Part shown: positions 1 through 16,132 of the stretch, piece by piece | Position numbering within the stretch: the first letter of the stretch is position 1 | How the letters are laid out: each line of letters starts with the position of its first letter | Sequence record: SRR31156797_4840 | Reading direction: 5' to 3' (one strand) | Length of the DNA stretch: 64,000 nucleotides | Position numbers and translations under genes: made by a program | Notes under the pieces: model-generated | Told to the model about the DNA's origin: nothing | The model's database searches: none | What the model saw: only the letters and a program-made list of their open reading frames with translations

Positions 1-69
1 GTTTGTTTATTTTGTCGTGATTTAATCATATTAGAGAACGATATGTTTTTTAATACCGAAAATGAAAAT

Positions 70-164
70 GAGGCTGAAGAATCAATTTTGACTCATCAGT
101 CCCATAAATTATAGAGCCTTTCTTGCGGCGTTCTTTTATGGGCTTTTGTCACAGTCTCTTTTTT
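70..164. repeat. Imperfect long hairpin, possibly an intergenic palindromic repeat or terminator
   Basis: GAGGCTG(70)...CAGTCTC(158) outer arms, CCCATAA/TTATGGG inner arms, followed by a T-run. Confidence 0.35.
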
Positions 165-732
165 GCGTTATTTCAAAAATAACTTTACTTATTTTATCAA
201 AAACAGTGATTTATAAAAAAAATAATAATTTTTATTTTGTTATTTTATATGCAATGAAATTTTTAAATAACGTTTTTTATTCATTTTTGATTATAACATT
301 ATTATTATCTACAGTCAGAAGATAGGAAGCGTTCTTTTAACTTATTATTTTAGGTCGTTAGAAAAGAGTTTTGTGCCGCTGAATTTTGTCAAATATTCTA
401 ACATTTTATTTATTTTTCTCATCTTAATTTAATTATGAGTGTTGATTTATCCCTCGTTTTTTGTATGATTTATGAAAGAGAAAAGCAGTTTTTTGAAAAG
501 AATCGATGATTCATCCTGATAATTTGCGCTTTTTTTCAATCGATGAGTAACAGATAGCTATAAGATGTGGAAGTTACAAAAATCAGAATTATGAAAAATC
601 AATTATAATCATAATTTTGAATGGAAGAAAAAAAGAATTATAATTCTCTTTCGCCAACTCGCTAAACTAAGAGTTGTAACACAGGGCGTGCACTGCGCGA
701 TACGTTTATTTTTTTAAGATAGGAGGGATAAA

Positions 733-3700
733 GTGAAACGGTTTTTAACAACTTTACTTGTTTTTCTACTAACATCAGGTCCGTGTTTTTCATATGCAAT
801 GGTAGTGGCACAAGCCGAAAGTGTTACAAAAACAAGTGAAGAACAAAGTATGTCTTCTTCTGACCCTGTCGTTTCATCGATCGACAGTCTGGAAGAGACG
901 AACGAAACTGAAGTGCAAGCATCTAGCGAACCTGCTTCGACAGATTCGTCTACAGGAGCCACTGACACAGCTTCAGCTGAAACAGAAGCTTCATCGGAAG
1001 CTGCAGAAGAAGTACAGGTGACCTTTCTGACAGACACGGAGCATGTATTTGCTAACGGGGAAACCCGCACTCAGATCAGCAAAAACAAAGGGGAAGCACT
1101 AAAAGAAAGTGATTTACCAGTTTTTGAAGATGATACTGCTTTTGAAGGTTGGTCGTTAGATGGTACGGTCTATACAAGTCAAGCGCTGACCGAATTGATT
1201 CTCACGGAGAATCAAACCTTGACCGCTGTTTTTAAACCGACTGTTAAGGCAAGAGCGGCGGACATCTCGTTGGCAGAACAATCGATCAAAGAGATCATTG
1301 CAGAAGCCGATAAAACGAAAGTGATCGCTGTACCAAGTCCAGCTGGAGATGATTCAGCATATGCAGAATACACCAATAGTGCTGAAGGGATTCGTCAAGC
1401 GTTGTTCGATATGTATCAAAACGGCAATGGCCAAGAATTTGCTTTGTATGTTGGTTCGGGTGGATCGTTGTCACTGCCAACGAATCTGACTTCAAAGACG
1501 ATTCCAGCCACAATTGATAATACCAACATGACTTTCTATGCACTACAAGGAAAAGTCAGCCGCTTGATCATCACAGGTCATGGCGATGATCCCATCACAG
1601 ATGCGACAACGTTGACTTCTGGTAGTCGAACAGTTGCACTTGGCACGGACATCTACTTCGGTTCTGATGTAGTGATTCGAAACCTCAACTATACGGGGAC
1701 GAGAATGTACATGAATGGGCATAGTCTTTCCTTGAACGGTGGTTCCACCGGCAATGGCCTAGCTATTTATGGAGGAAGCAACAATGGCGACCTTACTGGA
1801 AATCCGACGATCACTGTAAATGCGACAGGCTCTGGAACTTGGAACATCTATGGTGGGAATCAAAGCGGTGGTACATTGACTGGGAATACAGCGATTGTCG
1901 TAAATAATACGGTGGGCGGCATCAGTACGATTGCAGGAGGTGCCAATATTGGTACGATTGATGGGAACACGAATGTTGCAATCAATCGCTTGAATGGGAC
2001 ATTAGGCAGTTATTATGGCGGTGGTCTTGGAACAAATGCTTCCAATACAGCCAATGTGACAGGAAATGTTGAAACGACGATCCAGACGACCAATACAAGC
2101 TTTCGCTTAAGTGCTTTTACTGGTGGCGTTCAATATGGAAATATCGGTGGTACAATCCGCAGTACGATCTCTGGTGCAGGCGGTTGGTCAGGCACAGCCA
2201 ATCGTTTCATAGGCGGTTCATTTTATGGCAACATCGGCTCTGATCGTTCTAAGGATGCCATCGTGACTAACCTAGATGCTAGCAGTTATTCCACTGGACG
2301 TAGTGAATTTGAAGGTGGCAATCGGAATACTGGTACCATCACAGGGAACATCGTTAACACCGTGAAAGCAGGACCGAGTGCGAGCGTCGGGGGGATTGGT
2401 GATTTTAACGGCGGCGGGGGAAACAACGTTAGTACCTTGACTCAAAGTTCAATGGGGGCTTCGAATACGACGACGTATGACAATTATACCCCGGAACAAC
2501 GAGCAGCACTGGCAGAAGCAGCGGCAAGTTTTAAAGTTTATGGCGATATCACTTCTCATCTAGTCAGTGGTTCCTTTTCAAATGGCGCGATTTATTCGAC
2601 GGCAGCTGGTCGAGGCGGCTATGTTGAAGGAAATACGACGATTGAAGTTGGCACGATCACTTCGGATGGTAGTCCTGGTGGAGATGGGATTGCTTACACA
2701 GGAACCAGACCAACGAATCTAGATTACTCAACAACCAACAAAACAAGAGGAAACGCCTCTGGTTGGGACATCGTTGGTGGCGGTGGTTATCCTGGTACGG
2801 CTTGGGATATCTATATTAAAGGAAATACCAAAACGATCTTAAATAACACGGTTGCTCGCTGGACCTACGGTGGCTCCTTCTCAGGTGTCATTGAGGGGAA
2901 TTCTTCCAATACTTTGAATTCGGGGATCGTCGATACGCTAGAAGGAACAGGGTATACTGGACGCCGCGTTTACGGAGATGGACGAACGACAGTAAATAAT
3001 GGGCAAGTAGACTGGTTTTTATCTGGTGGCGGCTGGGATGACTTATTAGTGACCGGCAATGTCGCAGTAACGGTTTATGATGGGGTGATCAATGCTTCAC
3101 TCGGTGCTTCTTATGGTGTCGCTTCTTCCCACACCATTAACGGAAACTCAGATAATCGAGTGTTTGGCGGGAACTTCTCAGGCACCCCGCGTACAGGGTC
3201 TAATGGTTTTTCAGGCGGTGTTACGAACAATGGACGGTTATTAGGAAATGCTAGTTTGACATTGGATTTGAGAGATTACGATGGTGAGTTTGCTCTTCCT
3301 TCAGGAACGAATATCTCAGGTGGAAATCCGTTTAACAGTACGAATATCGTTGGGACCGACAGCTCCAATACGATTACATTGAACATATACACAAAGCCGG
3401 GCTCAGATGCACTGAATGGTGCAACGATCTATGGCGATGGTGGACGGACTGCTAGCAATACAAGAAGCGGCAAAATTTATATGAATATCCAGGCAGAAGG
3501 ATCAAGTATCGGGAATTTATACACCACGTACTATTCCAATATTTCTTCCAGCCAAATTTTAAGAGATGTCGAAATGCGGGTTCAAGGAGCCAAAAGTATC
3601 AATGGGATTTCAGGCGGAAATGCGTCAGACAACTTTACGAACACGATCGTAGCCAACAGCAGCAATCAAGTGAAGATGAGCTTTGGTGAAAATGTCGATG

Positions 3701-5601
3701 GGACAGCTTCTTATCAAACTGATCCAATCGCTGTGACGGGTCTGGGAATCGTCAACTTTACCGAATTGAATGTGACAAACGGCATCAAGCTAATGGCCAA
3801 TGGGGGAGACATCAAAAATGGCCGTTCAGCCACTGCTGCGAATCACGCAACGACCTATCATCAGTTCGGTGACATCCATCTTTCCAAGGATGCCGGTATC
3901 GGTATTTCTTCTGCAACGAATTTGATTTCAGGCGCGAAGTTAACGGTGGAAGACAAAGGGACGATTGAGTCACCGCCGGGAACGGGGCGAATCAATCTTT
4001 CAGATTTCGCAACACCAGATACGGACAAAGATCATTTAACGTGGCTGAAAACGACGACCAATGATGCAGGTTCTCGAGTCAACAGTCAAGGGACGTGGTT
4101 TGGAGCGGTTAGTGCCTATCAAGTACTGACTATAAATCCAACTGCTGCTAATGCTGCAGCGATCACGCCAATCAACTTCAGCGGGATCGAAAAAGCGACT
4201 GGGAAAACCTTCATCGGGGACAACGATGTGACCAATGCAGCCAACGGGTACGGTATTGCGATACCAGGTTCGATCATTAACTACGAAGTCGAAACACCGG
4301 GAGTCGCTAACGGGATTGGCGCCATTAGTCACAATGTAACGGCAGTCAAAGAGAACAATACGCCGCTGACCTTGCAAGCATGGGGAACTGAGCAGGCGGG
4401 GACACAGGTGCAAAAAGGGCGTTTATTGATTCCCTACACGGTAACGGAATTGCCAACATTGACGTTTACACCAGAAACCCAAACGTCCGGTTCATGGGTC
4501 TATGCGGGGCAAATCAAATCCAGCAAGCTGGATAGCACGGATCAGCAGTTGACGGAACAACCAGATTCAGAGCCAGTTGACTGGACGAGTCCTGATGGGG
4601 AGTATAGTTACGATATTAGTGTCCGCTACTCAAATAAGGCGGAAGTCCAAGCCCGCAATGTGATCCTTACAGAGCAAGAGGCACAATCGCTGACCAAAGA
4701 ACAAGCCGTGACTTATCTCGAAGCCAGCGGGCGTCCTTTCTTTAAGGATACGCTGACAGATGAGGTCTTAGCTGCGATTCAAGAACCGTTAGAAACAGCG
4801 GTCTACCGCAAACAAGCGATCACTTTTTCAGTAGGGGAAAACGATCAGAATCAGGCAGAAACTACCGTGAATCTGGTGGTGGTCAAAAATGAAAGTGTCA
4901 TTTCTGCTGATCGGCAATTTGCCGTCTATGCAAAAGATGTCCGTTTGACCTTACCAGAAGCAACGGCGCTGACAGATGAAGCCGCTTTGGCAGACTATAC
5001 CCAAGCAACCACGATTTTTGCAGATAATCGGGCAAATATACCACCGACTGTCGATCCGCAAGCTTTTGCCGCGATCCAGCAAGCAACGGAAGATGAGCTG
5101 TTGAAAAATGTATCAACGGCTTACCATTATGAAGCAGGCAGTCAACGGGCAGAAAAAGTCGTCAATGTCGCAGTTGCCGGCGAGCTTATTTTAAGCAGTG
5201 TGCCAACAGACTTTGATTTTGGGCAGCAGAAAGTTGCCACAGAAACACAAGATTATTGGCCAACGATCACAGGTGAGCTAGCGGTGAAAGATACGAGAGG
5301 GTCCGAACGGAGTCCATGGCGCTTGACGGTCAAAGAGCAACAGCCATTAACGGATGGGACAGATCAATTAACCGATGTCTTCCGCTTTGTGACAAACGGT
5401 CAAGAACAGATGATAACCAGTGGGGAAATGATCATCGAGGAAACGGAATTGACAGAAAATGGCACATACGTCGTGAATCAGCACTGGGGCGAAAGTCAGA
5501 ATGAAGGAATCAAGCTTACCGTTCCAGTCGAACAGCAAAAAGTTGGGGACTATCAAGGAACCTTGAGCTGGCAACTGGTTTCGGCACCGGGCAACCCATA
5601 A
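733..5601 (+). CDS. Large secreted WxL-domain surface protein (1622 aa), putative adhesin
   Basis: RBS AGGAGG + GTG; signal peptide; S/T/E-rich linker; long Gly/Asn/Thr-rich repeats (IYGG, GN-x-x-I-x-V); C-terminal WxL domain (FDFG...DTRG...WRLTV...YQGTLSWQL). Confidence 0.9.
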   Translation: MKRFLTTLLVFLLTSGPCFSYAMVVAQAESVTKTSEEQSMSSSDPVVSSIDSLEETNETEVQASSEPASTDSSTGATDTASAETEASSEAAEEVQVTFLTDTEHVFANGETRTQISKNKGEALKESDLPVFEDDTAFEGWSLDGTVYTSQALTELILTENQTLTAVFKPTVKARAADISLAEQSIKEIIAEADKTKVIAVPSPAGDDSAYAEYTNSAEGIRQALFDMYQNGNGQEFALYVGSGGSLSLPTNLTSKTIPATIDNTNMTFYALQGKVSRLIITGHGDDPITDATTLTSGSRTVALGTDIYFGSDVVIRNLNYTGTRMYMNGHSLSLNGGSTGNGLAIYGGSNNGDLTGNPTITVNATGSGTWNIYGGNQSGGTLTGNTAIVVNNTVGGISTIAGGANIGTIDGNTNVAINRLNGTLGSYYGGGLGTNASNTANVTGNVETTIQTTNTSFRLSAFTGGVQYGNIGGTIRSTISGAGGWSGTANRFIGGSFYGNIGSDRSKDAIVTNLDASSYSTGRSEFEGGNRNTGTITGNIVNTVKAGPSASVGGIGDFNGGGGNNVSTLTQSSMGASNTTTYDNYTPEQRAALAEAAASFKVYGDITSHLVSGSFSNGAIYSTAAGRGGYVEGNTTIEVGTITSDGSPGGDGIAYTGTRPTNLDYSTTNKTRGNASGWDIVGGGGYPGTAWDIYIKGNTKTILNNTVARWTYGGSFSGVIEGNSSNTLNSGIVDTLEGTGYTGRRVYGDGRTTVNNGQVDWFLSGGGWDDLLVTGNVAVTVYDGVINASLGASYGVASSHTINGNSDNRVFGGNFSGTPRTGSNGFSGGVTNNGRLLGNASLTLDLRDYDGEFALPSGTNISGGNPFNSTNIVGTDSSNTITLNIYTKPGSDALNGATIYGDGGRTASNTRSGKIYMNIQAEGSSIGNLYTTYYSNISSSQILRDVEMRVQGAKSINGISGGNASDNFTNTIVANSSNQVKMSFGENVDGTASYQTDPIAVTGLGIVNFTELNVTNGIKLMANGGDIKNGRSATAANHATTYHQFGDIHLSKDAGIGISSATNLISGAKLTVEDKGTIESPPGTGRINLSDFATPDTDKDHLTWLKTTTNDAGSRVNSQGTWFGAVSAYQVLTINPTAANAAAITPINFSGIEKATGKTFIGDNDVTNAANGYGIAIPGSIINYEVETPGVANGIGAISHNVTAVKENNTPLTLQAWGTEQAGTQVQKGRLLIPYTVTELPTLTFTPETQTSGSWVYAGQIKSSKLDSTDQQLTEQPDSEPVDWTSPDGEYSYDISVRYSNKAEVQARNVILTEQEAQSLTKEQAVTYLEASGRPFFKDTLTDEVLAAIQEPLETAVYRKQAITFSVGENDQNQAETTVNLVVVKNESVISADRQFAVYAKDVRLTLPEATALTDEAALADYTQATTIFADNRANIPPTVDPQAFAAIQQATEDELLKNVSTAYHYEAGSQRAEKVVNVAVAGELILSSVPTDFDFGQQKVATETQDYWPTITGELAVKDTRGSERSPWRLTVKEQQPLTDGTDQLTDVFRFVTNGQEQMITSGEMIIEETELTENGTYVVNQHWGESQNEGIKLTVPVEQQKVGDYQGTLSWQLVSAPGNP

Positions 5602-5615
5602 AGGCAGGAAAACAA

Positions 5616-5984
5616 ATGAAAAAAATCATGATCGGTATTATTGCTGGCTGTCTATTAATATTTCCTCAGCTCGTTTCAGCAGCCGAAGCAGGTGCTTATG
5701 ACAGCAATGGCATTACTTCCTTTTTCGGCGTCTATGAAGAACCAGTTGAGGAGCCAGAAGAGCCCGTAAAAGAACAGCCAGGGAATAAACAAGTTAATCA
5801 AAAAGGCAACAATATTCTGCCGGCAACAGGATCAGATCACTTCAATAGCTATCAAAGCAGTGGTCTTGTCGTTTTGTTGGCAGCAGGAATCATTTTAATC
5901 AAAAGGAGAACAAAAAATGAAAAAACTTTTCTTGACGGCAGGCATTCTATTGATGAGCACTGCTCTGTTACCAACAACCGTTAA
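5616..5984 (+). CDS. Small LPXTG cell-wall-anchored protein of the WxL locus
   Basis: Signal peptide, LPATG, hydrophobic stretch, KRR tail; mature part only about 50 aa. Confidence 0.85.
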   Translation: MKKIMIGIIAGCLLIFPQLVSAAEAGAYDSNGITSFFGVYEEPVEEPEEPVKEQPGNKQVNQKGNNILPATGSDHFNSYQSSGLVVLLAAGIILIKRRTKNEKTFLDGRHSIDEHCSVTNNR

Positions 5985-6630
5985 TGCCGCTGAATACACT
6001 TCAAATGGAGCAATCACTTTTGAAGCGGACCCGAATCCAACCAATCCAGTTGATCCGACCGATCCAGAAAAACCAGTGGATCCCGTCGATCCAACCGATC
6101 CAGATGGACCAAATCCTGGAACAGCTGGACCATTATCGATTGATTTTGCTTCAAGTTTTCAATTTGGCAACCAACTGATTACTTCTGAAACAAAAGATTA
6201 TTACGCACAGCTGCAAGAGTTCACAGCTGGCGCTGCTGGACCAAACTATGTGCAAGTAACAGATAAACGAGGAACGCAAGAAGGTTGGTCATTGAGTGTT
6301 GTGCAAAACGGACAATTCAAAACGGCTGATGACGAAGAGCTAGTCGGCGCTTCATTATCGATCGCCTCAGGTGCAGCAACTTCAGTCACCGATATGCAGT
6401 ATGCACCAACAGTTACTGCAAGTCATACCTTTGTACCCGATAGTGAAATCACCTTGGTCAATGCACCTGTCGGAAAAGGAATAGGAACTTGGATTTACAA
6501 GTTTGGGAACGATGCAACGGAAGGGTCAACGGCAGTAAAATTAAACGTACCAGGCAGTTCCGTAAAATTAGCCAAAGAGTATCGGACGACATTGACTTGG
6601 AATTTAAAGAATGTCCCTGAAAGCAATTAA
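5917..6630 (+). CDS. Small WxL-domain protein 1
   Basis: Signal peptide, PVDPTDP linker, GPLSIDFAS, VQVTDKRG..GWSL, YRTTLTWNL. Confidence 0.93.
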   Translation: MKKLFLTAGILLMSTALLPTTVNAAEYTSNGAITFEADPNPTNPVDPTDPEKPVDPVDPTDPDGPNPGTAGPLSIDFASSFQFGNQLITSETKDYYAQLQEFTAGAAGPNYVQVTDKRGTQEGWSLSVVQNGQFKTADDEELVGASLSIASGAATSVTDMQYAPTVTASHTFVPDSEITLVNAPVGKGIGTWIYKFGNDATEGSTAVKLNVPGSSVKLAKEYRTTLTWNLKNVPESN

Positions 6631-6675
6631 AATCACTGATTTTCAGTAAAACAGATAAAGGAGTGTCAAATAGAA

Positions 6676-7476
6676 ATGAAAAAAACAGCATGGGTCTTTG
6701 TAAGTCTTGCCGTCTTGGCAGCAGCGAGTGCAGCAACCGAGGTTTCAGCAGCCGAAGCGGCTTCTTACACCTCAAATGGGGCGGTTGATTTTATTCCGAA
6801 TACTGATCCGACGAACCCAGTCAATCCAGAAAATCCAGATCCAGAAAACCCGGTCAATCCTGTGGATCCAACCGATCCCGATGGACCAAATCCTGGAACG
6901 AATGGCCCATTATCGATCGATTATGCCTCTAGCTTAGATTTTGGTGTCAATAAAATCTCTAATAAAAACGAAGTCTATTATGCACGAGCACAAGGGTACT
7001 TGAACGATGATGGCACAGCTTCTACATTAAAAACTGCCAATTATGTCCAAGTAACTGATAATCGCGGTAGTAATGCCGGTTGGCGGTTGTCTGTGAAGCA
7101 AAATGGTCAATTTAAAAATGAGACGACCTTGAATAAAGAATTGACAGGTTCTGTCATCACCCTAACAAGTCCTGCCGTTAAATCAAATGCGGTTGGCGTC
7201 ACAGCTCCCGTGGCAGAAGCAACGATCACGTTGGATGCAGCCGGTGCTGAATCAGTGGTGATGACTGCAGCAAAGCAAACAGGTGCTGGAACATGGGTCA
7301 ACGCTTGGGGAAGTGTTGAGTCGATCACTGAAATAGACAAAGATGATCAAGAAGTACAAGCCGATATTACCAAAGCAGTCGCACTTTCTGTACCAGGCAG
7401 CACCCCAAAAGATGCCGTTAGCTACACGACTACATTGACTTGGGTATTATCAGATACACCAGGAACGGAAGGATAA
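6676..7476 (+). CDS. Small WxL-domain protein 2
   Basis: Paralogue of the previous gene; GWRL and YTTTLTWVL motifs. Confidence 0.93.
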   Translation: MKKTAWVFVSLAVLAAASAATEVSAAEAASYTSNGAVDFIPNTDPTNPVNPENPDPENPVNPVDPTDPDGPNPGTNGPLSIDYASSLDFGVNKISNKNEVYYARAQGYLNDDGTASTLKTANYVQVTDNRGSNAGWRLSVKQNGQFKNETTLNKELTGSVITLTSPAVKSNAVGVTAPVAEATITLDAAGAESVVMTAAKQTGAGTWVNAWGSVESITEIDKDDQEVQADITKAVALSVPGSTPKDAVSYTTTLTWVLSDTPGTEG

Positions 7477-7487
7477 GGAGTATAGAC

Positions 7488-8228
7488 ATGAAAAAAACAC
7501 TAGCATTTCTCTCAGTATTAGGCTTAAGCCTAGCAGCACCAGTGCTGGCACAAGCAGCGGACAGTGCAGAATACAACTCAAATGGACAAATCACCTTTGA
7601 ACCAAATACGGATCCAACTAATCCAATCAGCCCAACGGATCCAGATCCAGAAAATCCAATCAAACCAGTGGATCCAACGGACCCAGATGGACCAAATCCG
7701 GGAACGAACGGACCGCTATCGATTGATTTTGCTTCAAGCCTTTACTTTGGCACACAAAAAATCACCTCAAAAACAGAGATCTACCATGCGGAAACTCAAA
7801 AATATGTGGATTCAGTTGGTGATAATCAAGAAGGACCGAATTTTGTCCAAGTGACAGACAATCGGGGAACAGAGAGCGGTTGGACATTGAATGTTCGCCA
7901 AAATGGTCAGTTCAAAACAGCGGAAGATCAAGAATTGACTGCTGCGCAAATTCGTTTGACGAAGGGAACTGTGGTAACTCCTTCATTGTCACCAAAACCA
8001 TCAAATGTGAGCGCAACGATCACATTGAATCCAAATGGTGCCCAATCCTTAGTGATGAGTGCCCAAGATGGCGAAGGGGCAGGGACCTATTTAATGAGCT
8101 GGGGCGATAGTTTAGCTGCAGCCATGGATAGCATTGAGTTGGAAGTTCCAGGCTCAACGACGAAATATGCCAGCCAATACAACACCACATTTACTTGGTT
8201 ACTAACAGACACACCAACCAACCCATAA
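7488..8228 (+). CDS. Small WxL-domain protein 3
   Basis: Start moved to ATG 7488 (RBS AAGGAG, MKK signal peptide); GWTL and YNTTFTWLL motifs. Confidence 0.93.
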   Translation: MKKTLAFLSVLGLSLAAPVLAQAADSAEYNSNGQITFEPNTDPTNPISPTDPDPENPIKPVDPTDPDGPNPGTNGPLSIDFASSLYFGTQKITSKTEIYHAETQKYVDSVGDNQEGPNFVQVTDNRGTESGWTLNVRQNGQFKTAEDQELTAAQIRLTKGTVVTPSLSPKPSNVSATITLNPNGAQSLVMSAQDGEGAGTYLMSWGDSLAAAMDSIELEVPGSTTKYASQYNTTFTWLLTDTPTNP

Positions 8229-8237
8229 GTACCAGCT

Positions 8238-8270
8238 TTCTCCTTGAACCTCGAAAGGGTTCAAGGAGAA
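8238..8270 (+). other. Strong intergenic stem-loop without U-tract
   Basis: 13-bp perfect stem TTCTCCTTGAACC/GGTTCAAGGAGAA. Confidence 0.7.
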
Positions 8271-8295
8271 TACATAGAAAGAAGGGACATCCATC

Positions 8296-9378
8296 ATGAA
8301 AAAAATCAAACAGCTTTTGGCGCTCCTATTCGCAAGTATTTTCTTTTTTGTACCAACCATAGGAACCGCTTCTGAATTTAACTTTGCCGTCAATCCAGTG
8401 ATTCCAGAGAATCAAATCGATAAAGAAAAGACTTATTTTGACTTGAAAATGGAGCCAGGAGCGGTTCAAACTGTAGAAGTCCAATTGCGCAATGACACCG
8501 ATCAAGAGGTCGTCATCGCGCCAGTGATCGCTTCTGCTACTACGAATCTAAACGGGGTCGTGGAATATGGCGAAAACGACATCGAAGCGGACGAAACCTT
8601 GCCTTATGATATGGCTGATTTGATTGAAGTGGAGGAAGAGATCACGATCCCGAAACAATCCCAAATCACCTTACCCTTAAAGATCAGTATGCCCTCAGAA
8701 TCGTTTGAAGGGGTTATTGCCGGTGGTTTGACCTTGAAAGAAACGACAGCGGAAACCGATACTGCTGACAGTGAAGAAGACCAAGGGTTAGCCATCAAGA
8801 ATGAGTATGCCTATGTCGTTGCGATTTTACTCCGTCAAAATACAACAGAAGTCACGCCGGATCTAAAACTGCTGGATGTTGGACCGGGACAAGTCAACGC
8901 TCGCAATACCATCAATGTTACGTTGCAAAATCCTGAATCAGCTTACTTAAATTCCTTACGGTTGATCAATGAAGTGAAGAAGAAAGGCGATAGTGACGTC
9001 TTGTATGCTTCAGATACCTCACGAATGCAAATGGCACCTAATTCAAACTTCTCGTACCCAATTTCCTTGGAAGGACAACGTTTAGAAGCAGGGACCTATG
9101 TGTTGACTTCCGTGGCCTATGGTGGGAAAAGCGATGAAGGACAATACAAAGTGGAGAATGAAGAAGGCGAGGAAGAAAGCTATCTCTATAAATGGAGCTT
9201 CGAAAAAGAATTCACAGTGACTGGCGATGTTGCTCGTGATCTTAATAAGAAAGATGTGACGATCGAAACAGATTACACGTGGCTTTACTTCTTGATCGGC
9301 GGTCTGTTGCTGCTGCTCGCCTTACTGCTGCTTTTATGGTACCGACGAAAGAAAAAAAATGAAACGGATGAAGCGTGA
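8296..9378 (+). CDS. DUF916/DUF3324 WxL-interacting membrane protein
   Basis: FAVNPVIPENQ..TYFDL, ATTNLNGVVEY, NEYAYVVAI, MAPNSNF motifs; C-terminal TM + basic tail. Confidence 0.92.
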   Translation: MKKIKQLLALLFASIFFFVPTIGTASEFNFAVNPVIPENQIDKEKTYFDLKMEPGAVQTVEVQLRNDTDQEVVIAPVIASATTNLNGVVEYGENDIEADETLPYDMADLIEVEEEITIPKQSQITLPLKISMPSESFEGVIAGGLTLKETTAETDTADSEEDQGLAIKNEYAYVVAILLRQNTTEVTPDLKLLDVGPGQVNARNTINVTLQNPESAYLNSLRLINEVKKKGDSDVLYASDTSRMQMAPNSNFSYPISLEGQRLEAGTYVLTSVAYGGKSDEGQYKVENEEGEEESYLYKWSFEKEFTVTGDVARDLNKKDVTIETDYTWLYFLIGGLLLLLALLLLLWYRRKKKNETDEA

Positions 9379-10168
9379 GCACCTTGAGAAATACTTGATC
9401 GATGGCTTGATCATCGCAGGTATCCTCTTGTTGGCACTTCCTTTTTTAAAAGAAAGCATCGTCAGTTGGCAATTACGCACAAGCGAATTGACGATAGCGA
9501 CCCAGCTGCCGACAACGATTCCAGAAGAAGAAACGATTCAAATGCCGGCTCTAGGGGATGTATTGGCTCCGCAGTCGGCAACGATCACCGGGTACGGCTT
9601 TGTTGCAATTGAAGCGATCGAGTTCCAGCAGCCGCTATTGGTGGGGATAACCAATCAGCAGCTGCTGAAAGGCGGTGTCGTGATGTTTCCGGAACGTTTG
9701 TTAAAAAATAACAATTTTGTCGTTTTAGGGCATCATCTCGGTAGACAAAGTTTGTTATTTGGTCAATTGCTAGAAGCACAGGTGGGGATGGAAGTGTCCG
9801 TAACCTACCTCGAGGAACGCCAGCAGTATATTATTATCGATAAAAAAGTCGTAGATGAATCCGACTTGTCGGTTCTAACAGATGACCAGACACCAAAGTT
9901 GACATTGATTACTTGTCCCACACCTACTCGAACAGAAGAACGCTACGTGCTGACAGCGATTCCTGTTGAGCAAGCAACTGCCGGGCAGTCGCAAAACACA
10001 GCGACCATGGGCAGTACGTCACAAGGCGCAAGAGTGTTGGCTCAAAAACAAGAAATGTTATGGAAACAACAATCTGAAAAAAATTGGTTTCTTTTATTTG
10101 TTATTTTATTTATAATTAGTGGATGTCTGCTTGGCGTTCACAAACTGTTGAAACGTTCAGCGCCGTAG
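9359..10168 (+). CDS. Sortase (class A-like catalytic core, extra C-terminal TM)
   Basis: N-terminal TM; GHH (His), TLITC (Cys), downstream Arg (EERYV). Confidence 0.9.
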   Translation: MKRMKREHLEKYLIDGLIIAGILLLALPFLKESIVSWQLRTSELTIATQLPTTIPEEETIQMPALGDVLAPQSATITGYGFVAIEAIEFQQPLLVGITNQQLLKGGVVMFPERLLKNNNFVVLGHHLGRQSLLFGQLLEAQVGMEVSVTYLEERQQYIIIDKKVVDESDLSVLTDDQTPKLTLITCPTPTRTEERYVLTAIPVEQATAGQSQNTATMGSTSQGARVLAQKQEMLWKQQSEKNWFLLFVILFIISGCLLGVHKLLKRSAP

Positions 10169-10212
10169 AAAGAGCATCAAAAAGAAGCTCTGTTGATAAG
10201 GAGGGTGAAGAA

Positions 10213-10704
10213 ATGAAACGCAGATTTGGTTTTGTCATTGGTGCCTGCATGATTATTGGAATGATCGATCTTGTCACAGAACAAGTTGTTTTTGCGACTA
10301 TCTATAATCCGCTAGACCCCTCAGAAGAAATCGTCCCAACGGATCCGCCAGAAGGAAGTACGGAAAAAGCAGATGAACCGCCTGCAGAAAAGGAAGAATC
10401 CAAAGAATCGCCGGCTCCTGAACCGGAACCTGTTCCGAAAAAAGAACAGGAACAATCCGCATTTCCAGAGAGCAGTTTTTTGGAAAAACAGAAGCACTTA
10501 GCACAACGAGTCATGTTAGAAGATGTTTTTGCGTCGGATCGTTTGGCTGTCGATTTAGCACTGCCGGGAAATAATACGGATGGTGACGGGGATGACAAAC
10601 CTTCGTATCTTGCCAGCTTATGCTATCTATTTTCAGGAAACGTTCTTTATGGCCAAAAAAATAACGGAGGCTTGAAAACGCATGTTTGTGACATTTTTGA
10701 ATAA
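10213..10704 (+). CDS. Hypothetical exported Pro/Glu-rich protein
   Basis: ATG 10213 after GAGGGTG; signal-peptide-like N-terminus; overlaps both neighbours' operon context. Confidence 0.65.
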   Translation: MKRRFGFVIGACMIIGMIDLVTEQVVFATIYNPLDPSEEIVPTDPPEGSTEKADEPPAEKEESKESPAPEPEPVPKKEQEQSAFPESSFLEKQKHLAQRVMLEDVFASDRLAVDLALPGNNTDGDGDDKPSYLASLCYLFSGNVLYGQKNNGGLKTHVCDIFE

Positions 10705-12142
10705 GGCGGACAAACGAAAATTGATGATGCTGCAATATTTGGAAAACGCAGTCGCTCTTTCTGAAACGAAGGAAACATTGATGGACCAATTGACCATGTC
10801 GGAATTTCTGATCAATAAGACCGTTCAAGAATTGAATCTTGATTTTTATGAACTAGGATTGAATGAGGAATTTGAGATCGTGACCGATGGGACGGTCATT
10901 AAACTGAATGCCTCCGGGCTGGCAACTTCAGACACACTACTGACCTATTATCTAGATCAAGCGTTAAAATTTTCTATGTTGAAAGAATGCTTTTTTGAGC
11001 AATTGTCTTCTTTATACGAATTTGCTACCAATCACTATCTAAGTCATAATCCCGTCTATAAAGAATTTAAACAGTTTAAACTGATCTTGAAAGAATACGA
11101 CATTGAAGTGACGAAAGAGTTTCAGCTGGTGGGTGAAGAAAGTGAGATTCGGGAGTTTATTTTTCTCTTTTTTATGAAGGAATATTATTTGAACCATTCC
11201 CCTTTCCCAAAAGGTATCTTGGACAAAGAAAAAACCTTTGATCGATTCAATGAAAGTACTTGGCTGAATCCAGAACAGTCTGCCCGCATGCGGATTCGCA
11301 AGAAACATTATCTAGGTATTGTTTTGGCGCGGATGTCTAAAGGACATTTCATGCAAAACAGTGTGGAAAACGATTTAGTCTTGCCAAAACATTTAGTGAT
11401 CATTGAAGATTTGAAGCGTTGGTTGCAGGAGATCTTGACGATCAACGATCAAGAAGTCCTAGAACGTGAGGCACGAGATATTTTGCGCTTCTTGATCGTT
11501 GAAGGCTGGTTGATCGACAACAATAGCTACATCGACCAAGAACAAACCTATATCCAACAATTAAACGAGCAGTTTATTCAGGCAGTCCAACAGCAGTTTT
11601 CGCTAACCACTGACACGTTGGCGCTGCTTCATGTCGAAACGACTACGATTCATTACCAGCTCTTGTCGTTTTCTTTTAGTTCTCGTTATGAATACCAATA
11701 CATGGATGTCACATATTTTCTTGAGACGTATCCTGAATATGCTGCGTTTTGCCGCAACTATCTGGAAGAAAGTCGTAATCGACCGATCTTATGGAACAAT
11801 AAAGAGTTTTTGTTTTTTAGATACCTAATTTTATTAGTTTCTACGATTCCACTAAAAGAGATTTTGGTTCCTTTATATGTCTGTGTTGATTTTTCGTTTG
11901 GTGATTCCTACAACCAGATGATCAAAAAGAATATTGAAAAAATTCTCGATTTGAATGTGCAATTCCAGAGTTACCCAGATGATCATACGCACCTGATTCT
12001 TTCAAACCTGCCATTTTATGGTGCGTTGGGGATCGACCATATTTTATGGCTAGCACCACCTAGACCCATCGATTGGGCCAATTTTACTGAAAAAATCAGC
12101 GTGATTCGCAGAGAACAATTTCAAACCAAAACGGCACAGTGA
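10682..12142 (+). CDS. Mga/AtxA-like HTH transcriptional regulator
   Basis: About 490 aa; two N-terminal HTH regions, LVGEESEIR motif, C-terminal EIIB-like segment; RBS GGAGG. Confidence 0.85.
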   Translation: MFVTFLNKADKRKLMMLQYLENAVALSETKETLMDQLTMSEFLINKTVQELNLDFYELGLNEEFEIVTDGTVIKLNASGLATSDTLLTYYLDQALKFSMLKECFFEQLSSLYEFATNHYLSHNPVYKEFKQFKLILKEYDIEVTKEFQLVGEESEIREFIFLFFMKEYYLNHSPFPKGILDKEKTFDRFNESTWLNPEQSARMRIRKKHYLGIVLARMSKGHFMQNSVENDLVLPKHLVIIEDLKRWLQEILTINDQEVLEREARDILRFLIVEGWLIDNNSYIDQEQTYIQQLNEQFIQAVQQQFSLTTDTLALLHVETTTIHYQLLSFSFSSRYEYQYMDVTYFLETYPEYAAFCRNYLEESRNRPILWNNKEFLFFRYLILLVSTIPLKEILVPLYVCVDFSFGDSYNQMIKKNIEKILDLNVQFQSYPDDHTHLILSNLPFYGALGIDHILWLAPPRPIDWANFTEKISVIRREQFQTKTAQ

Positions 12143-12170
12143 GCATCTTGCCGTTTAACTATCGAAAGCA

Positions 12171-12202
12171 GCGTCTGCCTCAAATGAAGGCAGGCGTTTT
12201 TT
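12171..12202 (+). terminator. Intrinsic terminator of the WxL locus
   Basis: GCGTCTGCCT/AGGCAGGCGT stem + T-run. Confidence 0.75.
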
Positions 12203-12350
12203 GCAGAAATCTACCATATGCAAAAAGCACACAGGGATCTATTGCCCTGATGAAGTGTTCGGATAAGGTCTGTGAAAAAGGACCATTTGATAGGATTTTT
12301 TTTTAGTAGAAAATTTGGTATGATAGAAAGAGAAGAAAAAGAGGTGCCCT

Positions 12351-12920
12351 ATGATGGATGGGAAACAAACGAAGGCTGTGATTGGCCAGACATTGATCAC
12401 CCTTTGTGAGACCAAAGAAGTGAATAAAATCAGCGTACAGGAGATCGCCGAAAAGGCGCAAGTCAATCGGCAGACGTTTTACTACCATTTTCCTGATAAA
12501 AAAGCTTTGATCCAATGGATCTATCGGCAAGATGCCCTGATTTTTTTGACGACAGAAGATGTCTCCCTTGATAACTGGGAAGAAGCCGCCTTGCGCATGC
12601 TGAAAGCAATGAAACAAGCGCCGGCCTTTTACCGCAAATCACTGGCTTATGACCGCGAGATCTTAATGAACGGTTTTTTACAGATCACAGAACCGCTTTT
12701 TCAGCGCTTGTTCTTGGAGGTCGATCAAGAGCAGCAATTGACGAAACAAGACATTCTATTTTATAGCCGATTCTTTTCCTACGGCTGCGGAGGCATTTTG
12801 GAAAATTGGATTCACAACGACTTTCCAGAGACCCCATTAGAGATTGCGACGCAATTGTTTCGTTTGGCGAAGGATGTGGAATTTTTTGGCCACCAAATCT
12901 ATGAAAAAGAGGAGCAGTAA
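12351..12920 (+). CDS. TetR family regulator (DhaS-like, TetR_C_8)
   Basis: ISVQEIAEKAQVNRQTFYYHF HTH; FFSYGCGGILENW C-terminal motif. Confidence 0.85.
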   Translation: MMDGKQTKAVIGQTLITLCETKEVNKISVQEIAEKAQVNRQTFYYHFPDKKALIQWIYRQDALIFLTTEDVSLDNWEEAALRMLKAMKQAPAFYRKSLAYDREILMNGFLQITEPLFQRLFLEVDQEQQLTKQDILFYSRFFSYGCGGILENWIHNDFPETPLEIATQLFRLAKDVEFFGHQIYEKEEQ

Positions 12921-12923
12921 GCG

Positions 12924-13382
12924 ATGACGAAAGTTTTATTTGTTTGTTTAGGTAATATTTGCCGTTCCCCCATGGCAGAAGCTATTTATAAAGCAGAAAT
13001 AGCAAAACACAAGTTGGATTGGCAGATCGATTCGGCAGCGACCAGCTCATGGGAAGTCGGACATTCTGCTCATCCCGGAACCAAAAAAAGACTGCGTCAA
13101 GCAGGGATCTCTAGTGACGGTCTTATTTCACGGCAGATCACTGAAGCGGATTTTGCCACATTTGATTGGATCATCGGCATGGATGCGAACAATGTTGAAA
13201 CACTTCAAGCGCTAGCACCTGCCGATACGACCGCAAAGATCCGTTCGTATTTGAGTGTTGTTCCTGGCAAAGAGGCTGAGGAAGTACCAGATCCTTATTA
13301 TACAGGAGATTTCGAAGAGACCTATCAACTGCTGCAAGAGGGGATTCCTTATTGGCTAGAGGTTATTTCTTCTGAAAAATAA
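12924..13382 (+). CDS. Low-molecular-weight protein-tyrosine phosphatase
   Basis: CLGNICRS P-loop and DPYY. Confidence 0.95.
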   Translation: MTKVLFVCLGNICRSPMAEAIYKAEIAKHKLDWQIDSAATSSWEVGHSAHPGTKKRLRQAGISSDGLISRQITEADFATFDWIIGMDANNVETLQALAPADTTAKIRSYLSVVPGKEAEEVPDPYYTGDFEETYQLLQEGIPYWLEVISSEK

Positions 13383-13393
13383 GGCGTGTTCGC

Positions 13394-13450
13394 TTGTATT
13401 TTATCAAAAATTTGCTAAAATAGAACCATGGAAATGCGAACGTATGTGTG
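13394..13450 (+). promoter_or_regulatory. Promoter (TTGTAT / TGcTAAAAT) followed by a LexA-box-like site
   Basis: CGAACGTATGTGTG at 13437-13450, one mismatch to CGAACRNRYGTTYG. Confidence 0.55.
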
Positions 13451-13489
13451 GTTTTAGAAACTGCTGCAACGCGCAGAAAGGAATGTCCA

Positions 13490-13843
13490 ATGGAAAAGAA
13501 ACCATCGCCCATCAAACAATTGGGCAAACTCATTGTGATGACATCCACAACGTTGCTGGATACCTTTTTCAGTGATGATGCTGACAAGAAGAATCAGTCT
13601 GAGAAAGTCAAAGAAATCCGGCGAACGCTGCAAGAGGCAGCCGCTGCCAAGCATCTGGTCGTGCTGCAAGTAAAAACAGAGAAATTGGGTGGTTTTGAAA
13701 CCGTTACCGGCTGGATCGTCGGCAAAACGGTAGCAAAAGAACAAGTTGTCTTGAAATTACAAAGCGACCGTCAGCAGCTGCGGATTATTCCCCTGCATCA
13801 TGTGCTGAAAGTTAGCACCTTGAATACAAAACCCGGCTTGTAA
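13490..13843 (+). CDS. Hypothetical protein, possibly YolD-like
   Basis: ATG 13490 after GAAAGGA; helix followed by a beta-rich C-terminus ending IIPLHHVLKV. Confidence 0.7.
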   Translation: MEKKPSPIKQLGKLIVMTSTTLLDTFFSDDADKKNQSEKVKEIRRTLQEAAAAKHLVVLQVKTEKLGGFETVTGWIVGKTVAKEQVVLKLQSDRQQLRIIPLHHVLKVSTLNTKPGL

Positions 13844-13860
13844 ACAAGCCTGTGCATAGC

Positions 13861-13897
13861 AAAAAAACCGCTGCGTCATTAGACATAGCGGTTTTTT
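13861..13897. terminator. Bidirectional terminator
   Basis: A-run, CCGCT/AGCGG stem, T-run between convergent genes. Confidence 0.8.
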
Positions 13898-13906
13898 AAT
13901 TGCTAG

Positions 13907-14266
13907 TTACGCGTGCTTGTTTTTGACTTCTGCGAGTCGCCAAGCGGTCATCACAGCGATCAGTTCGTAAGGGATCGGCTGTGCAAAAGAAAACTGGACC
14001 GCCCCTTTACTGGTCTTGTATGGTTGTAAGTCCTCTTGGAAGGCCGTGATCGCAGAAGGCGTGGGATAAAAGCCTAGATGCTGTTTGGCGCAGGCAAAAT
14101 GTACGATATTTTCTCCCTGATGATAAGTAGGCATTTGATAACTGATCTTTTCAACCGCTTCAGGTAAAACGGCTTTGATGGTTTGACGGACCTTTCTTAA
14201 AATCGCTTGTCGTTCTGCTGGAGCTGCTGCAATGTATTGGTCAACTGTCGTAATGGCTGTTGTCAT
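13907..14266 (-). CDS. DUF1801/YdhG-like protein (iron chaperone family)
   Basis: TVDQYI, EKISYQMPTY, HLGFYP, SKGAVQF motifs; start ATG 14266 with RBS GGAGGTG. Confidence 0.88.
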   Translation of the reverse strand: MTTAITTVDQYIAAAPAERQAILRKVRQTIKAVLPEAVEKISYQMPTYHQGENIVHFACAKQHLGFYPTPSAITAFQEDLQPYKTSKGAVQFSFAQPIPYELIAVMTAWRLAEVKNKHA

Positions 14267-14306
14267 AGGCCACCTCCTGCCTTTAGTATACGGCAAACCC
14301 CGTAAG

Positions 14307-14386
14307 AAAAAAAGGAGCCTGTCAGTGGGTAGCTGACAGGCAAGGAGTAAAAATGAAAAGTGTTAGTTAGGGTTGTTTGTTGGGTT
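14307..14386 (-). ncRNA. Putative small RNA copy 1 (about 80 nt, csRNA-like architecture)
   Basis: Minus-strand -10 TATAGT (14393-14398), conserved CU-rich body, GC stem 14317-14341 + U-tract; paralogue 162 bp away. Confidence 0.75.
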
Positions 14387-14469
14387 ATGTATACTATACT
14401 GTCCAAATATGAATTTTTTGTGGAGAAAAGATTGGAAAGTGTTTAAGTTTGCTGGCTGCGAAAATAAGT

Positions 14470-14548
14470 AAAAAAAGACCCGTCGGTGGGTGGCCGACGG
14501 GAAGGAGTTAAAAATGAAAAAGTGTTAGTTAGGGTTGTTTGTTGGTAT
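14470..14548 (-). ncRNA. Putative small RNA copy 2 (about 80 nt)
   Basis: Minus-strand -10 TATACT (14555-14560), near-identical body, covarying terminator stem 14479-14501 + U-tract. Confidence 0.75.
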
Positions 14549-14626
14549 ACATAGAGTATACGAGATAAATATGAATATTCTGTGACAAATCTTTTCGGAA
14601 GTTCTTAAGAAATCGTAACGGTTTGG

Positions 14627-16132
14627 TTACAGAGAAAGGTTCTTTTCATCAAAACGGTTTTTCAACGTACGATACAAATCAATGTATTGCCGATCGTCTG
14701 CCGCATAATCCCAAATATAACTCATTTTTTCTGGTTTGAGTTTTTTCATCAACTGATTGGAACTAACGATGACATCATAATTTTCTTGCTGGTTTAGATC
14801 ATAAGGTTCTGCTGCTACGAAGGTCAAGTCATGTAGGAATTGATTCAATCCTTGAACGACTAAGAAATTATCTTCTAACGCAACCCCTACCCGTAAACGA
14901 TTCGAATAACGGATTTGATCATAAAACGGCAGCAGGGCGTGGGTATACATCGTTGCCATCTGCTCTTGGTTTTCATCATTGATATAGTCCACCGCTGATT
15001 CTTCGCGATAGTTCGTTAAGAATTCATCGATTTTTTGCTGCAGCTGCTCTTCAGCAGACCCGCGATTGATCGAGGGTGTCAGCAAGCGATAGATATTTGG
15101 AAACGGCTGACGGAAAACGTAGTTGCCGAAAGTCACATTGATTAAATTACCCACGACCAATGGCTCGTCTAACAGGCCAGGTTGTGAAGCAAAGAAGGTT
15201 GCTTTCATCTCTGCTAACAAGTCTGCGACTAACGGATAAACTGGGTTTTGTTTGCTTGAAAAGAATTGCAAGGTTTGTTGCAAAGCTTCTTCTTCAGGAC
15301 TCAAGTAGAATGGGAAGATTTGCGCCATCAAATAAATAAACCCTGATTCGCCTTTTAATTGTTTGTCTGTCATTGAAACTTCAGGATCAACGACTTGTGT
15401 CAAACGCTCAAAATCGAAATATGGATTATTTTTCATCAGGAAATTGTACCGCTTGTCGTATTTGGCAAAATTCCCTTTTTTGATTCGTAAAAGAATCAAG
15501 GCGGCGAAATACTTCAACTCTAATCGGCCAAGATAAGAATGAGTCATTGGGAAATACTCCGTGAATCGATCCACCATTTTTTCTGTCTCACTCTCAGCGA
15601 TCGCAAATGGCCATTCTATTCCACGAGTACCTAACCAAATGATATTGAATAGGGAGAGCCGCACAAGACGCTCATCGCCCACTAAGTTTGATTCAGTGTA
15701 CGTAAAGCGAAGCTGAAATTGCTTCAAATGTTTTTTTAGATGTTCAAATTTGCGAGACACCGTTGAACGACTGACATCGTATTTTGCACAAAAATCCGTG
15801 ATCGTAGGATTGTCTTCATTCAGCATGTAAAGAACATATAAGAACGGAACGCTTTTATTCAATAAATAGAAGCGGTATTCATCGATCGTTACCGCGATAT
15901 TCTGAGGCTGTAATTTACCGCCACGACCGAGTATCGACATATGATCCGGAGTTAACTCAGTTAGATCTTGGTCGATCTCAGTCAACTCTATAAAAGCTTG
16001 TTGGTAGCTTAACTCCATTTCCTTTGCCAATTGTGCGATTGGGTGGCTAGGGTTTTGCAGAGTCAGCATACGCCGGAATATTTTAAATTTAATTAATGTT
16101 TGCGGGTCCATCATAAGTTCTTCATAAAACAT
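14627..16132 (-). CDS. Mga-like HTH transcriptional regulator
   Basis: 501 aa; TITDFCAKYDVSRSTVSR HTH, LVGDERLVR motif. Confidence 0.85.
   Translation of the reverse strand: MFYEELMMDPQTLIKFKIFRRMLTLQNPSHPIAQLAKEMELSYQQAFIELTEIDQDLTELTPDHMSILGRGGKLQPQNIAVTIDEYRFYLLNKSVPFLYVLYMLNEDNPTITDFCAKYDVSRSTVSRKFEHLKKHLKQFQLRFTYTESNLVGDERLVRLSLFNIIWLGTRGIEWPFAIAESETEKMVDRFTEYFPMTHSYLGRLELKYFAALILLRIKKGNFAKYDKRYNFLMKNNPYFDFERLTQVVDPEVSMTDKQLKGESGFIYLMAQIFPFYLSPEEEALQQTLQFFSSKQNPVYPLVADLLAEMKATFFASQPGLLDEPLVVGNLINVTFGNYVFRQPFPNIYRLLTPSINRGSAEEQLQQKIDEFLTNYREESAVDYINDENQEQMATMYTHALLPFYDQIRYSNRLRVGVALEDNFLVVQGLNQFLHDLTFVAAEPYDLNQQENYDVIVSSNQLMKKLKPEKMSYIWDYAADDRQYIDLYRTLKNRFDEKNLSL

Follow-up and report, generated by a model that had tools for sequence, protein, structure and literature searches.

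A candidate Elr-type WxL pilus locus that encodes its own sortase

Positions 733-12142 of a 64,000-nt stretch from sequence record SRR31156797_4840 (the whole of which is called the window below) carry nine plus-strand genes with small or no spacing, and these were analysed by profile searches, structure and complex prediction, and comparison with orthologous loci. We consider it very probable that 733-10704, together with the regulator gene at 10682-12142, constitutes an enterococcal Elr-type WxL pilus locus, for which sequence and modelling predict a non-covalent donor-strand fibre on a base that is covalently fixed to the wall. The genes encode a giant protein with a C-terminal WxL core (the tip candidate), a mini anchor with a sorting signal, three small WxL proteins (pilins 1, 2 and 3), a DUF916/DUF3324 chaperone candidate, a sortase, a small secreted protein and a regulator of the Mga type (Table 1).

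The mechanism is already known for a homologous operon, and the evidence supports membership of the window locus in the Elr-type WxL pilus systems. According to bioRxiv 10.64898/2026.10.17.759780 (17 Oct 2026; the Elr preprint, which like the PMC articles below is cited from the sections available to us), elrABCDE of Enterococcus faecalis makes fibres of 3-4 nm. ElrD polymerises there by N-terminal donor-strand exchange, resolved by cryo-electron microscopy at 3.5 Å with the strand antiparallel to the acceptor's C-terminal strand; it yields fibres hundreds of nanometres long on its own, and deletion of its N-terminus abolishes the oligomers. The DUF916/DUF3324 protein ElrE was described as a membrane chaperone required for polymerisation, ElrA as the tip and ElrB as the base were predicted with AlphaFold, and ElrC was left unplaced and treated as a possible adaptor. 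Wall anchoring was assigned to the housekeeping sortase SrtA: a srtA mutant loses high-molecular-weight ElrD from the cell wall, and monomers of ElrA and ElrD are found in the supernatant.

An initial annotation, made from the letters of the window alone, had assigned four roles to the locus (a tip that only accepts a strand, shaft subunits that donate and accept, a base that only donates, and a chaperone) and knew of no description of this model. The roles are supported, since the same model was published for elr and the sequence features of the window locus match it; the model can no longer be called undescribed, since it is in print. Beyond the published account of Elr, the window locus represents a conserved subtype with its own class A-like sortase, [LI]PxTG anchors, a disordered secreted protein and a regulator of the Mga type. 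No mention of a sortase gene inside a WxL locus was found in the consulted sections of the Elr preprint, and full-text literature searches on WxL returned, in the text that they covered, neither a description of a WxL pilus with a locus-encoded sortase nor a further WxL paper of the donor-strand kind.

Donor strands, acceptor cores and chaperone candidate

After their signal peptides, pilins 1, 2 and 3 begin with EYTSNGAITF, SYTSNGAVDF and EYNSNGQITF, and residues 27-36 of the anchor read AYDSNGITSF; all four strands were thus located as annotated. When the whole window was searched for the pattern Y.SNG...F, in 450 six-frame open stretches of at least 50 aa that total 46,879 aa, exactly four matches were obtained, in the three pilins and the anchor. 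Each of the three pilins agrees with the consensus [S/T]-x-[G/A]-x-[V/I]-x-F of the Elr preprint (SNGAITF, SNGAVDF and SNGQITF). The N-terminus common to anchor and pilins could be quantified because NF053819, the family model of the anchor, also matches all three pilins, over residues 1-54 to 1-68 (about 30 bits, E 6e-7 to 8e-7). The strand is followed in each pilin by the annotated Pro/Asp linker, although this measures 35, 37 and 37 aa in pilins 1, 2 and 3 and not about 30 aa. The WxL domains of the pilins scored 225-244 bits with Pfam (E 1.1e-66, 5.5e-71 and 2.3e-72, in the same order), the matches of the small WxL proteins beginning at model position 2-3 (pilin 1 covers positions 3-214). 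Pilin 2 gave no match to PDB sequences at E up to 0.01, and a pilus-like WxL complex is for this reason seemingly absent from the searched PDB.

The mini anchor was matched by NF053819 (EF2685/EF0750 family sortase-dependent surface protein) at 69.6 bits, with a cut-off of 47, and by the LPXTG anchor model TIGR01167 at 24.6 bits; EF2685 we take, from the V583 locus tags, to be ElrB. Only 45 residues, including a Pro/Glu linker, separate LPATG from the point at which the signal peptide is predicted to be cleaved; the motif precedes a hydrophobic segment and KRRTK, and the protein has neither a folded domain nor a WxL domain. Its description as a strand, a linker and a sorting signal is confirmed by these features. 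Alignment of 24 orthologues showed Y28, F36, G38, Y40, P69, T71 and G72 to be invariant.

The initial annotation had proposed a check in which a strand-deleted WxL core is modelled with the N-terminal peptide of the LPXTG protein. Pilin 3 residues 40-246, from which the strand is deleted, were accordingly combined with mature anchor residues 23-71 in a complex prediction run without the supplied alignments, and the median of three runs was compared with three controls. The pair scored 0.93 and the best of the controls 0.28, and the check was passed; the score mark exceeded by the pair is attained in 51 of 78 solved complexes but in only two of 108 mismatched pairs. At least 99% of the contacts agreed between runs, with a predicted local distance difference test score (pLDDT) of the partner of at least 58. 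Only anchor residues 23-39 took part in the predicted interface, where they paired antiparallel with the C-terminal strand of pilin 3 (226-242) and parallel with its first core strand (77-92) and completed the sheet, in the register 28-237, 30-235, 32-233 and 34-231 (anchor-pilin 3). This topology is that of the ElrD fibre, in which the strand likewise lies antiparallel to the acceptor's C-terminal strand (Elr preprint). Read as likeness to a complex and not as binding, the prediction supports an anchor strand that fills the groove of a pilin.

No Pfam or NCBIfam family was matched by the giant protein as a whole, whose residues 201-1150 consist of 16% G, 12.5% T, 10% N and 10% S. Pfam WxL was matched by its last 242 aa at 5e-13, with 50 bits against a cut-off of 25, and the match spans positions 39-214 of the 214 in the model. 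The giant thus lacks the part of the model that holds strand and linker, because its match begins at position 39 and those of the pilins at 2-3; the annotation of a WxL core with no strand or linker in front of it stands, with one look-alike as a caveat. The C-terminus also matched the WxL chain 9i25_A of the PDB ('WxL domain surface protein') at 1.1e-6, and a profile of tip C-termini matched the three pilins at 1e-8 to 3.5e-11. The giant has the features set for a tip, namely a length of more than 500 aa, a WxL domain as its most C-terminal domain and no strict donor-strand motif. For comparison, 41 sortase-bearing loci of the family were assembled, consisting of 40 longer stretches from 33 genomes and the window locus; 39 of them encode a large protein with a C-terminus of the giant type, its gene preceding that of the anchor or lying between those of pilins 2 and 3. 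The latter position was seen in L074, L083-L086, L090, L092, L105 and L106. The tips fall into two size classes, of about 880-1045 aa and about 1500-1665 aa.

The look-alike is YTQATTIF, at residues 1422-1429 of the giant (nt 4996-5019) and followed by ADNRANIPPTVDP, 59 aa upstream of the WxL core. It has no S-N-G and no Pro/Asp linker and fits only a loose pattern. In an alignment of 17 tips it is conserved in all eight that belong to the ~1500-1665 aa class. From the sequence it may be a weak remnant of a donor strand or else belong to the domain before it. A location within a repeated domain was considered and found unsupported, as BLAST of two segments matched only nine residues that were common to both slices.

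The chaperone candidate matched PF06030 at 137.6 bits (2.7e-40, cut-off 27.3) and PF11797 at 153.4 bits (4.6e-45, cut-off 28.9). It corresponds to the operon rule of the Elr preprint, which asks for one protein of 150-800 aa carrying both domains above threshold, and its gene starts 68 nt after the end of the nearest pilin gene, within the 10 kb set for a WxL pilin. The AlphaFold2 model, built from 34 aligned sequences, had a mean pLDDT of 89.3 and a predicted template modelling score of 0.75, and shows two beta-sandwich domains and a terminal helix (residues 328-359), with a low-confidence loop at residues 153-165. The top Foldseek matches were the solved WxLIP structures of Enterococcus faecium (E 2.6e-26 to 2.4e-24), among them 9i1y_A at 2.6e-26 with template modelling (TM) scores of 0.67/0.89 and 9i25_C, 'bound to long WxL', and the family profile of the chaperone matched EfmWxLIP1 at 7e-63. 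Foldseek matches to Caf1M and CfaA were weak (E about 1e-6, TM 0.29/0.45) and ranked among other tandem Ig-like proteins. The PapD-type domain (PF00345) was absent from the Pfam matches at E up to 0.01, which comprised PF06030 and PF11797 only.

The strands were then compared between loci. Orthologues of pilin 2 match [ST]x[GA]x[VI]xF in 37 of 37 sortase-bearing loci and those of pilin 3 in 34 of 37, the remaining three carrying Y in place of F; pilin 1 is the variable position, with the strict consensus in just 19 of 37 related loci. Many other genera have a pilin 1 whose strand lacks the terminal Phe and reads Y-Q-S-G-G-x-x-[VI]-K-P (for example Y-Q-S-G-G-G-T-T-V-K-P-L-D-P), while the consensus is retained in their pilins 2 and 3. 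The variant was recorded in loci L069-L081, L087, L089, L091, L094 and L096-L098, in the first pilin gene after the anchor. The sequences suggest that pilin 1 may be a specialised adaptor.

Co-variation between anchor and pilin N-termini, which the initial annotation had put forward as a cross-genome test, was assessed within the nearest genome, G001 (77% shared words, 14 DUF916 matches), in ten loci with both an anchor and a pilin. Anchor strands resembled the pilins of their own locus class with a mean score of 24.9 against 20.7 after permutation (p=0.004, a value that overstates independence, the G001 loci being paralogues). The S-N-G class, to which the window locus belongs, scored 33, and the others at most 19. 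Co-variation was thus borne out between locus classes; within a class it was not, as detailed below. About 13 WxL loci were seen in G001 (L016-L028), seven of which have no sortase and pair LPQTN or LPKTN anchors with T-[ED]-G strands. L026 and L027 are outliers, with anchor and pilin strands that both lack Gly or Phe.

That each of the three pilins is incorporated in one or a few copies and in a set order, giving a short ordered stalk with a tethered adhesin and with the linkers of 35-37 aa as flexible joints, is in our view unlikely. The three pilin positions do stay distinct from genus to genus, with a strand variant particular to each, the terminal Phe is often missing from pilin 1 in contrast to pilins 2 and 3 (counts above), and ElrC, unplaced in the Elr preprint, could be an adaptor. 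Against a short stalk, ElrD of E. faecalis forms its long fibres by itself, and pilins 2 and 3 each have a full consensus strand and a core, such that either could self-polymerise.

A static, non-covalent platform was the published view until 2023 (PMC9772566, PMC10599100): WxL domains would bind peptidoglycan, the N-terminal strand would fold into its own domain, the DUF916/DUF3324 protein would do no more than stabilise WxL on the wall, and the LPXTG protein would be an unrelated neighbour anchored to the wall. In the former article, AlphaFold models of WxL proteins have an N-terminal strand and a long linker, and the monomer models lay the strand on its own domain; in the latter, insertion of a strand by the DUF916 protein was predicted; both proposed the static platform. 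We judge it very unlikely for the window locus, where the anchor has a strand yet no domain to receive one, the tip keeps a core without a strand, and the anchor strand is predicted in the groove of a pilin with no control above 0.28. The homologous ElrD, moreover, makes donor-strand-exchanged fibres and loses its oligomers with its N-terminus.

The locus sortase, its distribution and its companion genes

The sortase annotated in the same locus was recognised by Pfam Sortase at 1.4e-17. Among NCBIfam models it passed the generic TIGR01076 only; the class C model scored 38.4 bits with a cut-off of 160, the class D model was also far below its cut-off, and no class A model was among the matches at E up to 0.01. 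The best PDB sequence matches were class A sortases (1e-18 to 1e-14), and one database homologue carries the NCBI class A name. Class A-like is the nearest assignment by sequence. His125, Cys186 and Arg195 were invariant, and N- and C-terminal transmembrane segments were kept, in 29 aligned sortases. The nearest named relatives of the sortase, with 85% identity in Enterococcus casseliflavus and 83% in E. innesii, place the source of the window among the enterococci of this group.

The sortase profile was also run against 401 genomes of the order, where presumed housekeeping sortases were matched over the catalytic part with E of about 1e-30 to 1e-39 and other families yielded matches over the full length. 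Pilin-polymerising class C sortases have a C-terminal membrane segment. A covalent pilus, in which the locus sortase would link subunits by isopeptide bonds, might be read from the two transmembrane segments in 29 of 29 aligned sortases and from the weak class C match, but it is scarcely credible, as the sorting signal is confined to the mini protein while the pilins and the giant terminate in WxL cores, the class C score is far under its cut-off, the closest solved relatives are class A, and the profile matches presumed housekeeping sortases.

Of 134 family genomes searched with the sortase, 52 contained a match with E no higher than 1e-10. Among the best 30 loci, a DUF916 gene lay directly upstream of the sortase in 30, a WxL gene was visible in 28 and a gene of the Mga type in 25. 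The sortase-bearing subtype was found in 34 of the 134 family genomes and in four further families. The synteny tip-anchor-pilins-chaperone-sortase is conserved in the 41 family loci, at least three pilins being present in 37 of the 41 and a mini anchor in 37 of the 41. Twenty loci of other families were fetched: 15, from four families, have the chaperone directly upstream and pilins, most of them with an anchor and a tip, one has a distant chaperone, and four have no WxL context. L109, L111 and L113, from two genomes of another family of the order, carry five pilin genes in a row and anchors that end in IPHTG or IPKAG. The orthologous locus L060/L031 seems degraded, with chaperone and sortase in one 603-aa frame, two TAA flagged inside the sortase match, and pilin 3 split into frames of 140 aa and 137 aa.

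In sortase-bearing loci the final letter of the sorting motif is G in all 37 anchors, and the motif opens with IP and not LP in 15 of the 37. The motifs comprise LPATG (10), IPATG (6), LPRTG (5), IPLTG (4), LPSTG, IPRTG and LPVTG (3 each) and LPLTG, IPNAG and IPKTG (1 each). Nine sortase-less anchors of G001 read LPQTN (5), LPKTN (2) and LPQTG (2). A contrast of final G and N was rejected as a general rule, since ElrB has LPxTG though its locus has no sortase (Elr preprint). Among the G001 loci, a sortase within 10 kb was found only at the orthologue of the window locus, and three further sortase genes lie elsewhere in that genome. Synteny and motif differences suggest that the anchor is probably handled by the locus sortase rather than, or besides, the housekeeping enzyme.

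A sortase tree was calculated from 60 rows (53 WxL-linked and 7 free), four of 64 matches having been left out for lengths outside 200-330 aa. The linkage label needs three changes on this tree, two of which are forced by well-supported branches, and is clustered, with none of 500 shuffles as low.

For the small secreted protein, no Pfam or NCBIfam family was found, the best ESM Atlas score of 0.78 lies below the meaningful level, and the AlphaFold2 model, with a mean pLDDT of 56.8, predicts disorder. A signal peptide is followed by the mature start [TV]xIY[DN]P[LMT][DN]P, a middle part that is acidic and of low complexity, and motifs conserved at the C-terminus, with P33, P36, P42, G142 and G147 invariant in the alignment. 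By pattern it was detected in 32 of 41 sortase-bearing loci, in two of 20 other-family regions and in one of 14 G001 regions, the last being the orthologue of the window locus. Its N-terminal motif resembles the end of a donor strand (the last three positions only) and the start of a pilin linker. The regulator matched Mga HTH (helix-turn-helix) at 2.4e-16 and NF053736 (AcpB/EbpR/MafR) at 125.3 bits, just under the cut-off of 130.

Proposed assembly and the points against it

Under the Elr-type reading, all subunits would be exported via Sec, because each carries a signal peptide. The membrane-anchored DUF916/DUF3324 protein would use one of its own strands to fill the groove that is open in each WxL core. 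The giant, because it has a groove and no donor strand, would initiate the chain as its distal tip, and the small WxL proteins would then insert their N-terminal strand (S-N-G-x-[VI]-x-F) in the preceding subunit's groove, displacing the chaperone; one of them would probably form the shaft and the others serve as adaptors. The 122-aa ElrB-family protein, because it has a strand and no groove, would terminate the chain. Its LPATG would be cleaved and the anchor joined to peptidoglycan, probably by the locus sortase rather than, or besides, the housekeeping enzyme, and the Mga/EbpR-type regulator would turn the operon on.

These steps differ in origin. Groove filling by the chaperone, strand exchange and the need for a sortase are carried over by analogy from the E. 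faecalis Elr experiments (Elr preprint). The start at the tip and the end at the base are predictions in both E. faecalis Elr and the window locus. The choice of the locus sortase, and whatever part the small secreted protein may play, we infer for the window locus alone.

Several points weigh against this reading. The support specific to the locus consists of sequence similarity, one structure and one complex prediction. The anchor strand deviates from the consensus, with Thr at the Val/Ile position of the pilins; the strict pattern fits none of 37 anchors and a loosened one fits 31 of 37. Co-variation was seen between classes only, the seven T-[ED]-G loci of G001 being interchangeable with own-locus ranks of 1-7. 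Earlier work, as cited in the Elr preprint and PMC9772566, has WxL domains binding peptidoglycan non-covalently. As to the sortase, the choice of the locus enzyme draws on synteny and on differences between motifs, LPQTG also occurs in sortase-bearing loci of other families, and a single origin of the WxL-linked sortases, as one clade, is not supported by the 60-row tree. Finally, about 80% of sampled words from the window are contained in 18 RNA-labelled runs, in three of which single contigs of 9-20 kb span the locus; transcription cannot be inferred from them, because the same three runs contain contigs of 66-142 kb, whose great length leaves DNA possible.

It might further be speculated, with little expectation of being right, that sortase-bearing WxL loci are self-contained assembly lines. 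A sortase with two membrane anchors beside the chaperone would couple chain termination to wall attachment and so replace an usher, and the small secreted protein would be a previously unrecognised assembly factor whose mature N-terminus ([TV]-x-I-Y-[DN]-P) plugs the deep terminal pocket left open by the chaperone and so times or blocks exchange.

A donor-strand fibre of WxL proteins answers an old question about a gene cluster present in nearly all enterococci, lactococci and listeriae. The same model was reached from raw sequence alone, and the signature is thus strong enough for such loci to be annotated directly. The subtype in which a pilus operon brings its own sortase is widespread, and its base subunits often carry IPxTG. 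If this sortase is specific for the base subunit, it would offer a clean genetic handle that separates fibre assembly from wall anchoring, and the housekeeping enzyme would not always be the anchoring enzyme of WxL pili.

Locus layout and known systems

The coordinates of the features are given in Table 1. Those of pilin 3 refer to the ATG start; the list of open reading frames (ORFs) has a TTG start at 7440. The anchor ORF continues for 25 codons beyond its KRRTKNEK tail, giving a 68-nt out-of-frame overlap with the start of pilin 1 (5917-5984) that is preserved in the closest orthologues. A promoter and terminator scan found 21 promoter-like sites compared with 21.0 +/- 4.0 in shuffles, which allows no inference; one 10-of-12 match lies ahead of the giant at 617-644. 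No second WxL locus was found in the window by a six-frame pattern and profile scan. The 3' neighbours of the locus are a TetR-type gene, a low-molecular-weight phosphatase gene and a DUF1801 gene, past which, 2.5 kb downstream of the locus, a second gene of the Mga type lies on the minus strand (14627-16132, Mga HTH 2.3e-17).

Table 1. Predicted features of the candidate WxL pilus locus (positions in the window)
Feature	Position	Strand	Description
Giant protein, tip adhesin candidate	733..5601	+	1622 aa; signal peptide, Gly/Thr/Asn/Ser-rich body, C-terminal WxL core
WxL core of giant (predicted acceptor domain)	5161..5589	+	Pfam WxL partial-model match
Mini anchor, candidate base subunit	5616..5984	+	122 aa; NF053819, LPATG sorting signal
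Anchor residues 23-39 (AEAGAYDSNGITSFFGV), predicted donor strand	5682..5732	+	Complex prediction interface
LPATG sortase motif of anchor	5817..5831	+	ORF sequence and orthologue alignment
WxL pilin 1	5917..6630	+	237 aa; strand residues 26-35 (nt 5992-6021), 35-aa linker, core
WxL pilin 2	6676..7476	+	266 aa; strand residues 30-39 (nt 6763-6792), 37-aa linker, core
WxL pilin 3	7488..8228	+	246 aa; strand residues 28-37 (nt 7569-7598), 37-aa linker, core
DUF916/DUF3324 (WxLIP) chaperone candidate	8296..9378	+	360 aa; PF06030 and PF11797, C-terminal transmembrane helix
Locus sortase	9359..10168	+	269 aa; Pfam Sortase, His125/Cys186/Arg195
Small secreted protein	10213..10704	+	163 aa; signal peptide, family-less, predicted disordered
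Mga/AtxA-type regulator (AcpB/EbpR/MafR family)	10682..12142	+	486 aa; Mga HTH

The csc clusters of Lactobacillus plantarum are said to have been proposed as cell-surface complexes for carbohydrate use. They bring together the same families, namely DUF916, WxL and small LPXTG proteins (PMC1534035, 2006). The chaperone-usher pili of Gram-negative bacteria use a chaperone of a different family, whereas that of the window locus is membrane-anchored and the base is proposed to be joined to the wall by a sortase; no usher-like ORF was seen among the ORFs of positions 1-16000, in which no search by usher family name was made. TasA/TapA of Bacillus subtilis is likewise a Gram-positive fibre built by strand donation according to the Elr preprint, the Discussion of which notes that it has no WxL fold, DUF916 chaperone or sortase anchor.

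Sortase-assembled Gram-positive pili, such as Ebp of E. faecalis, share with the window locus an LPXTG base subunit, a locus sortase and an adjoining regulator of the EbpR family, but the window locus has only one protein with a sorting signal, and its sortase is nearest to class A and not class C. Closer is WxL locus A of E. faecium (PDB 9i1y and 9i25), since the chaperone candidate has the fold and family of EfmWxLIP1 and the C-terminus of the giant matches the WxL chain in 9i25. The E. faecium WxLIP work (PMC10599100) describes a binary complex of WxLIP and WxL and a platform model, and uses none of the words 'polymer', 'oligomer', 'LPxTG' and 'sortase'. Compared with Elr of E. faecalis, which has two pilins, a leucine-rich-repeat tip and reliance on the housekeeping SrtA, the window locus encodes three pilins, a Gly/Thr/Asn/Ser-rich tip candidate of 1622 aa with no recognised domain in place of the repeats, a sortase of its own and, in addition, a conserved disordered secreted protein.

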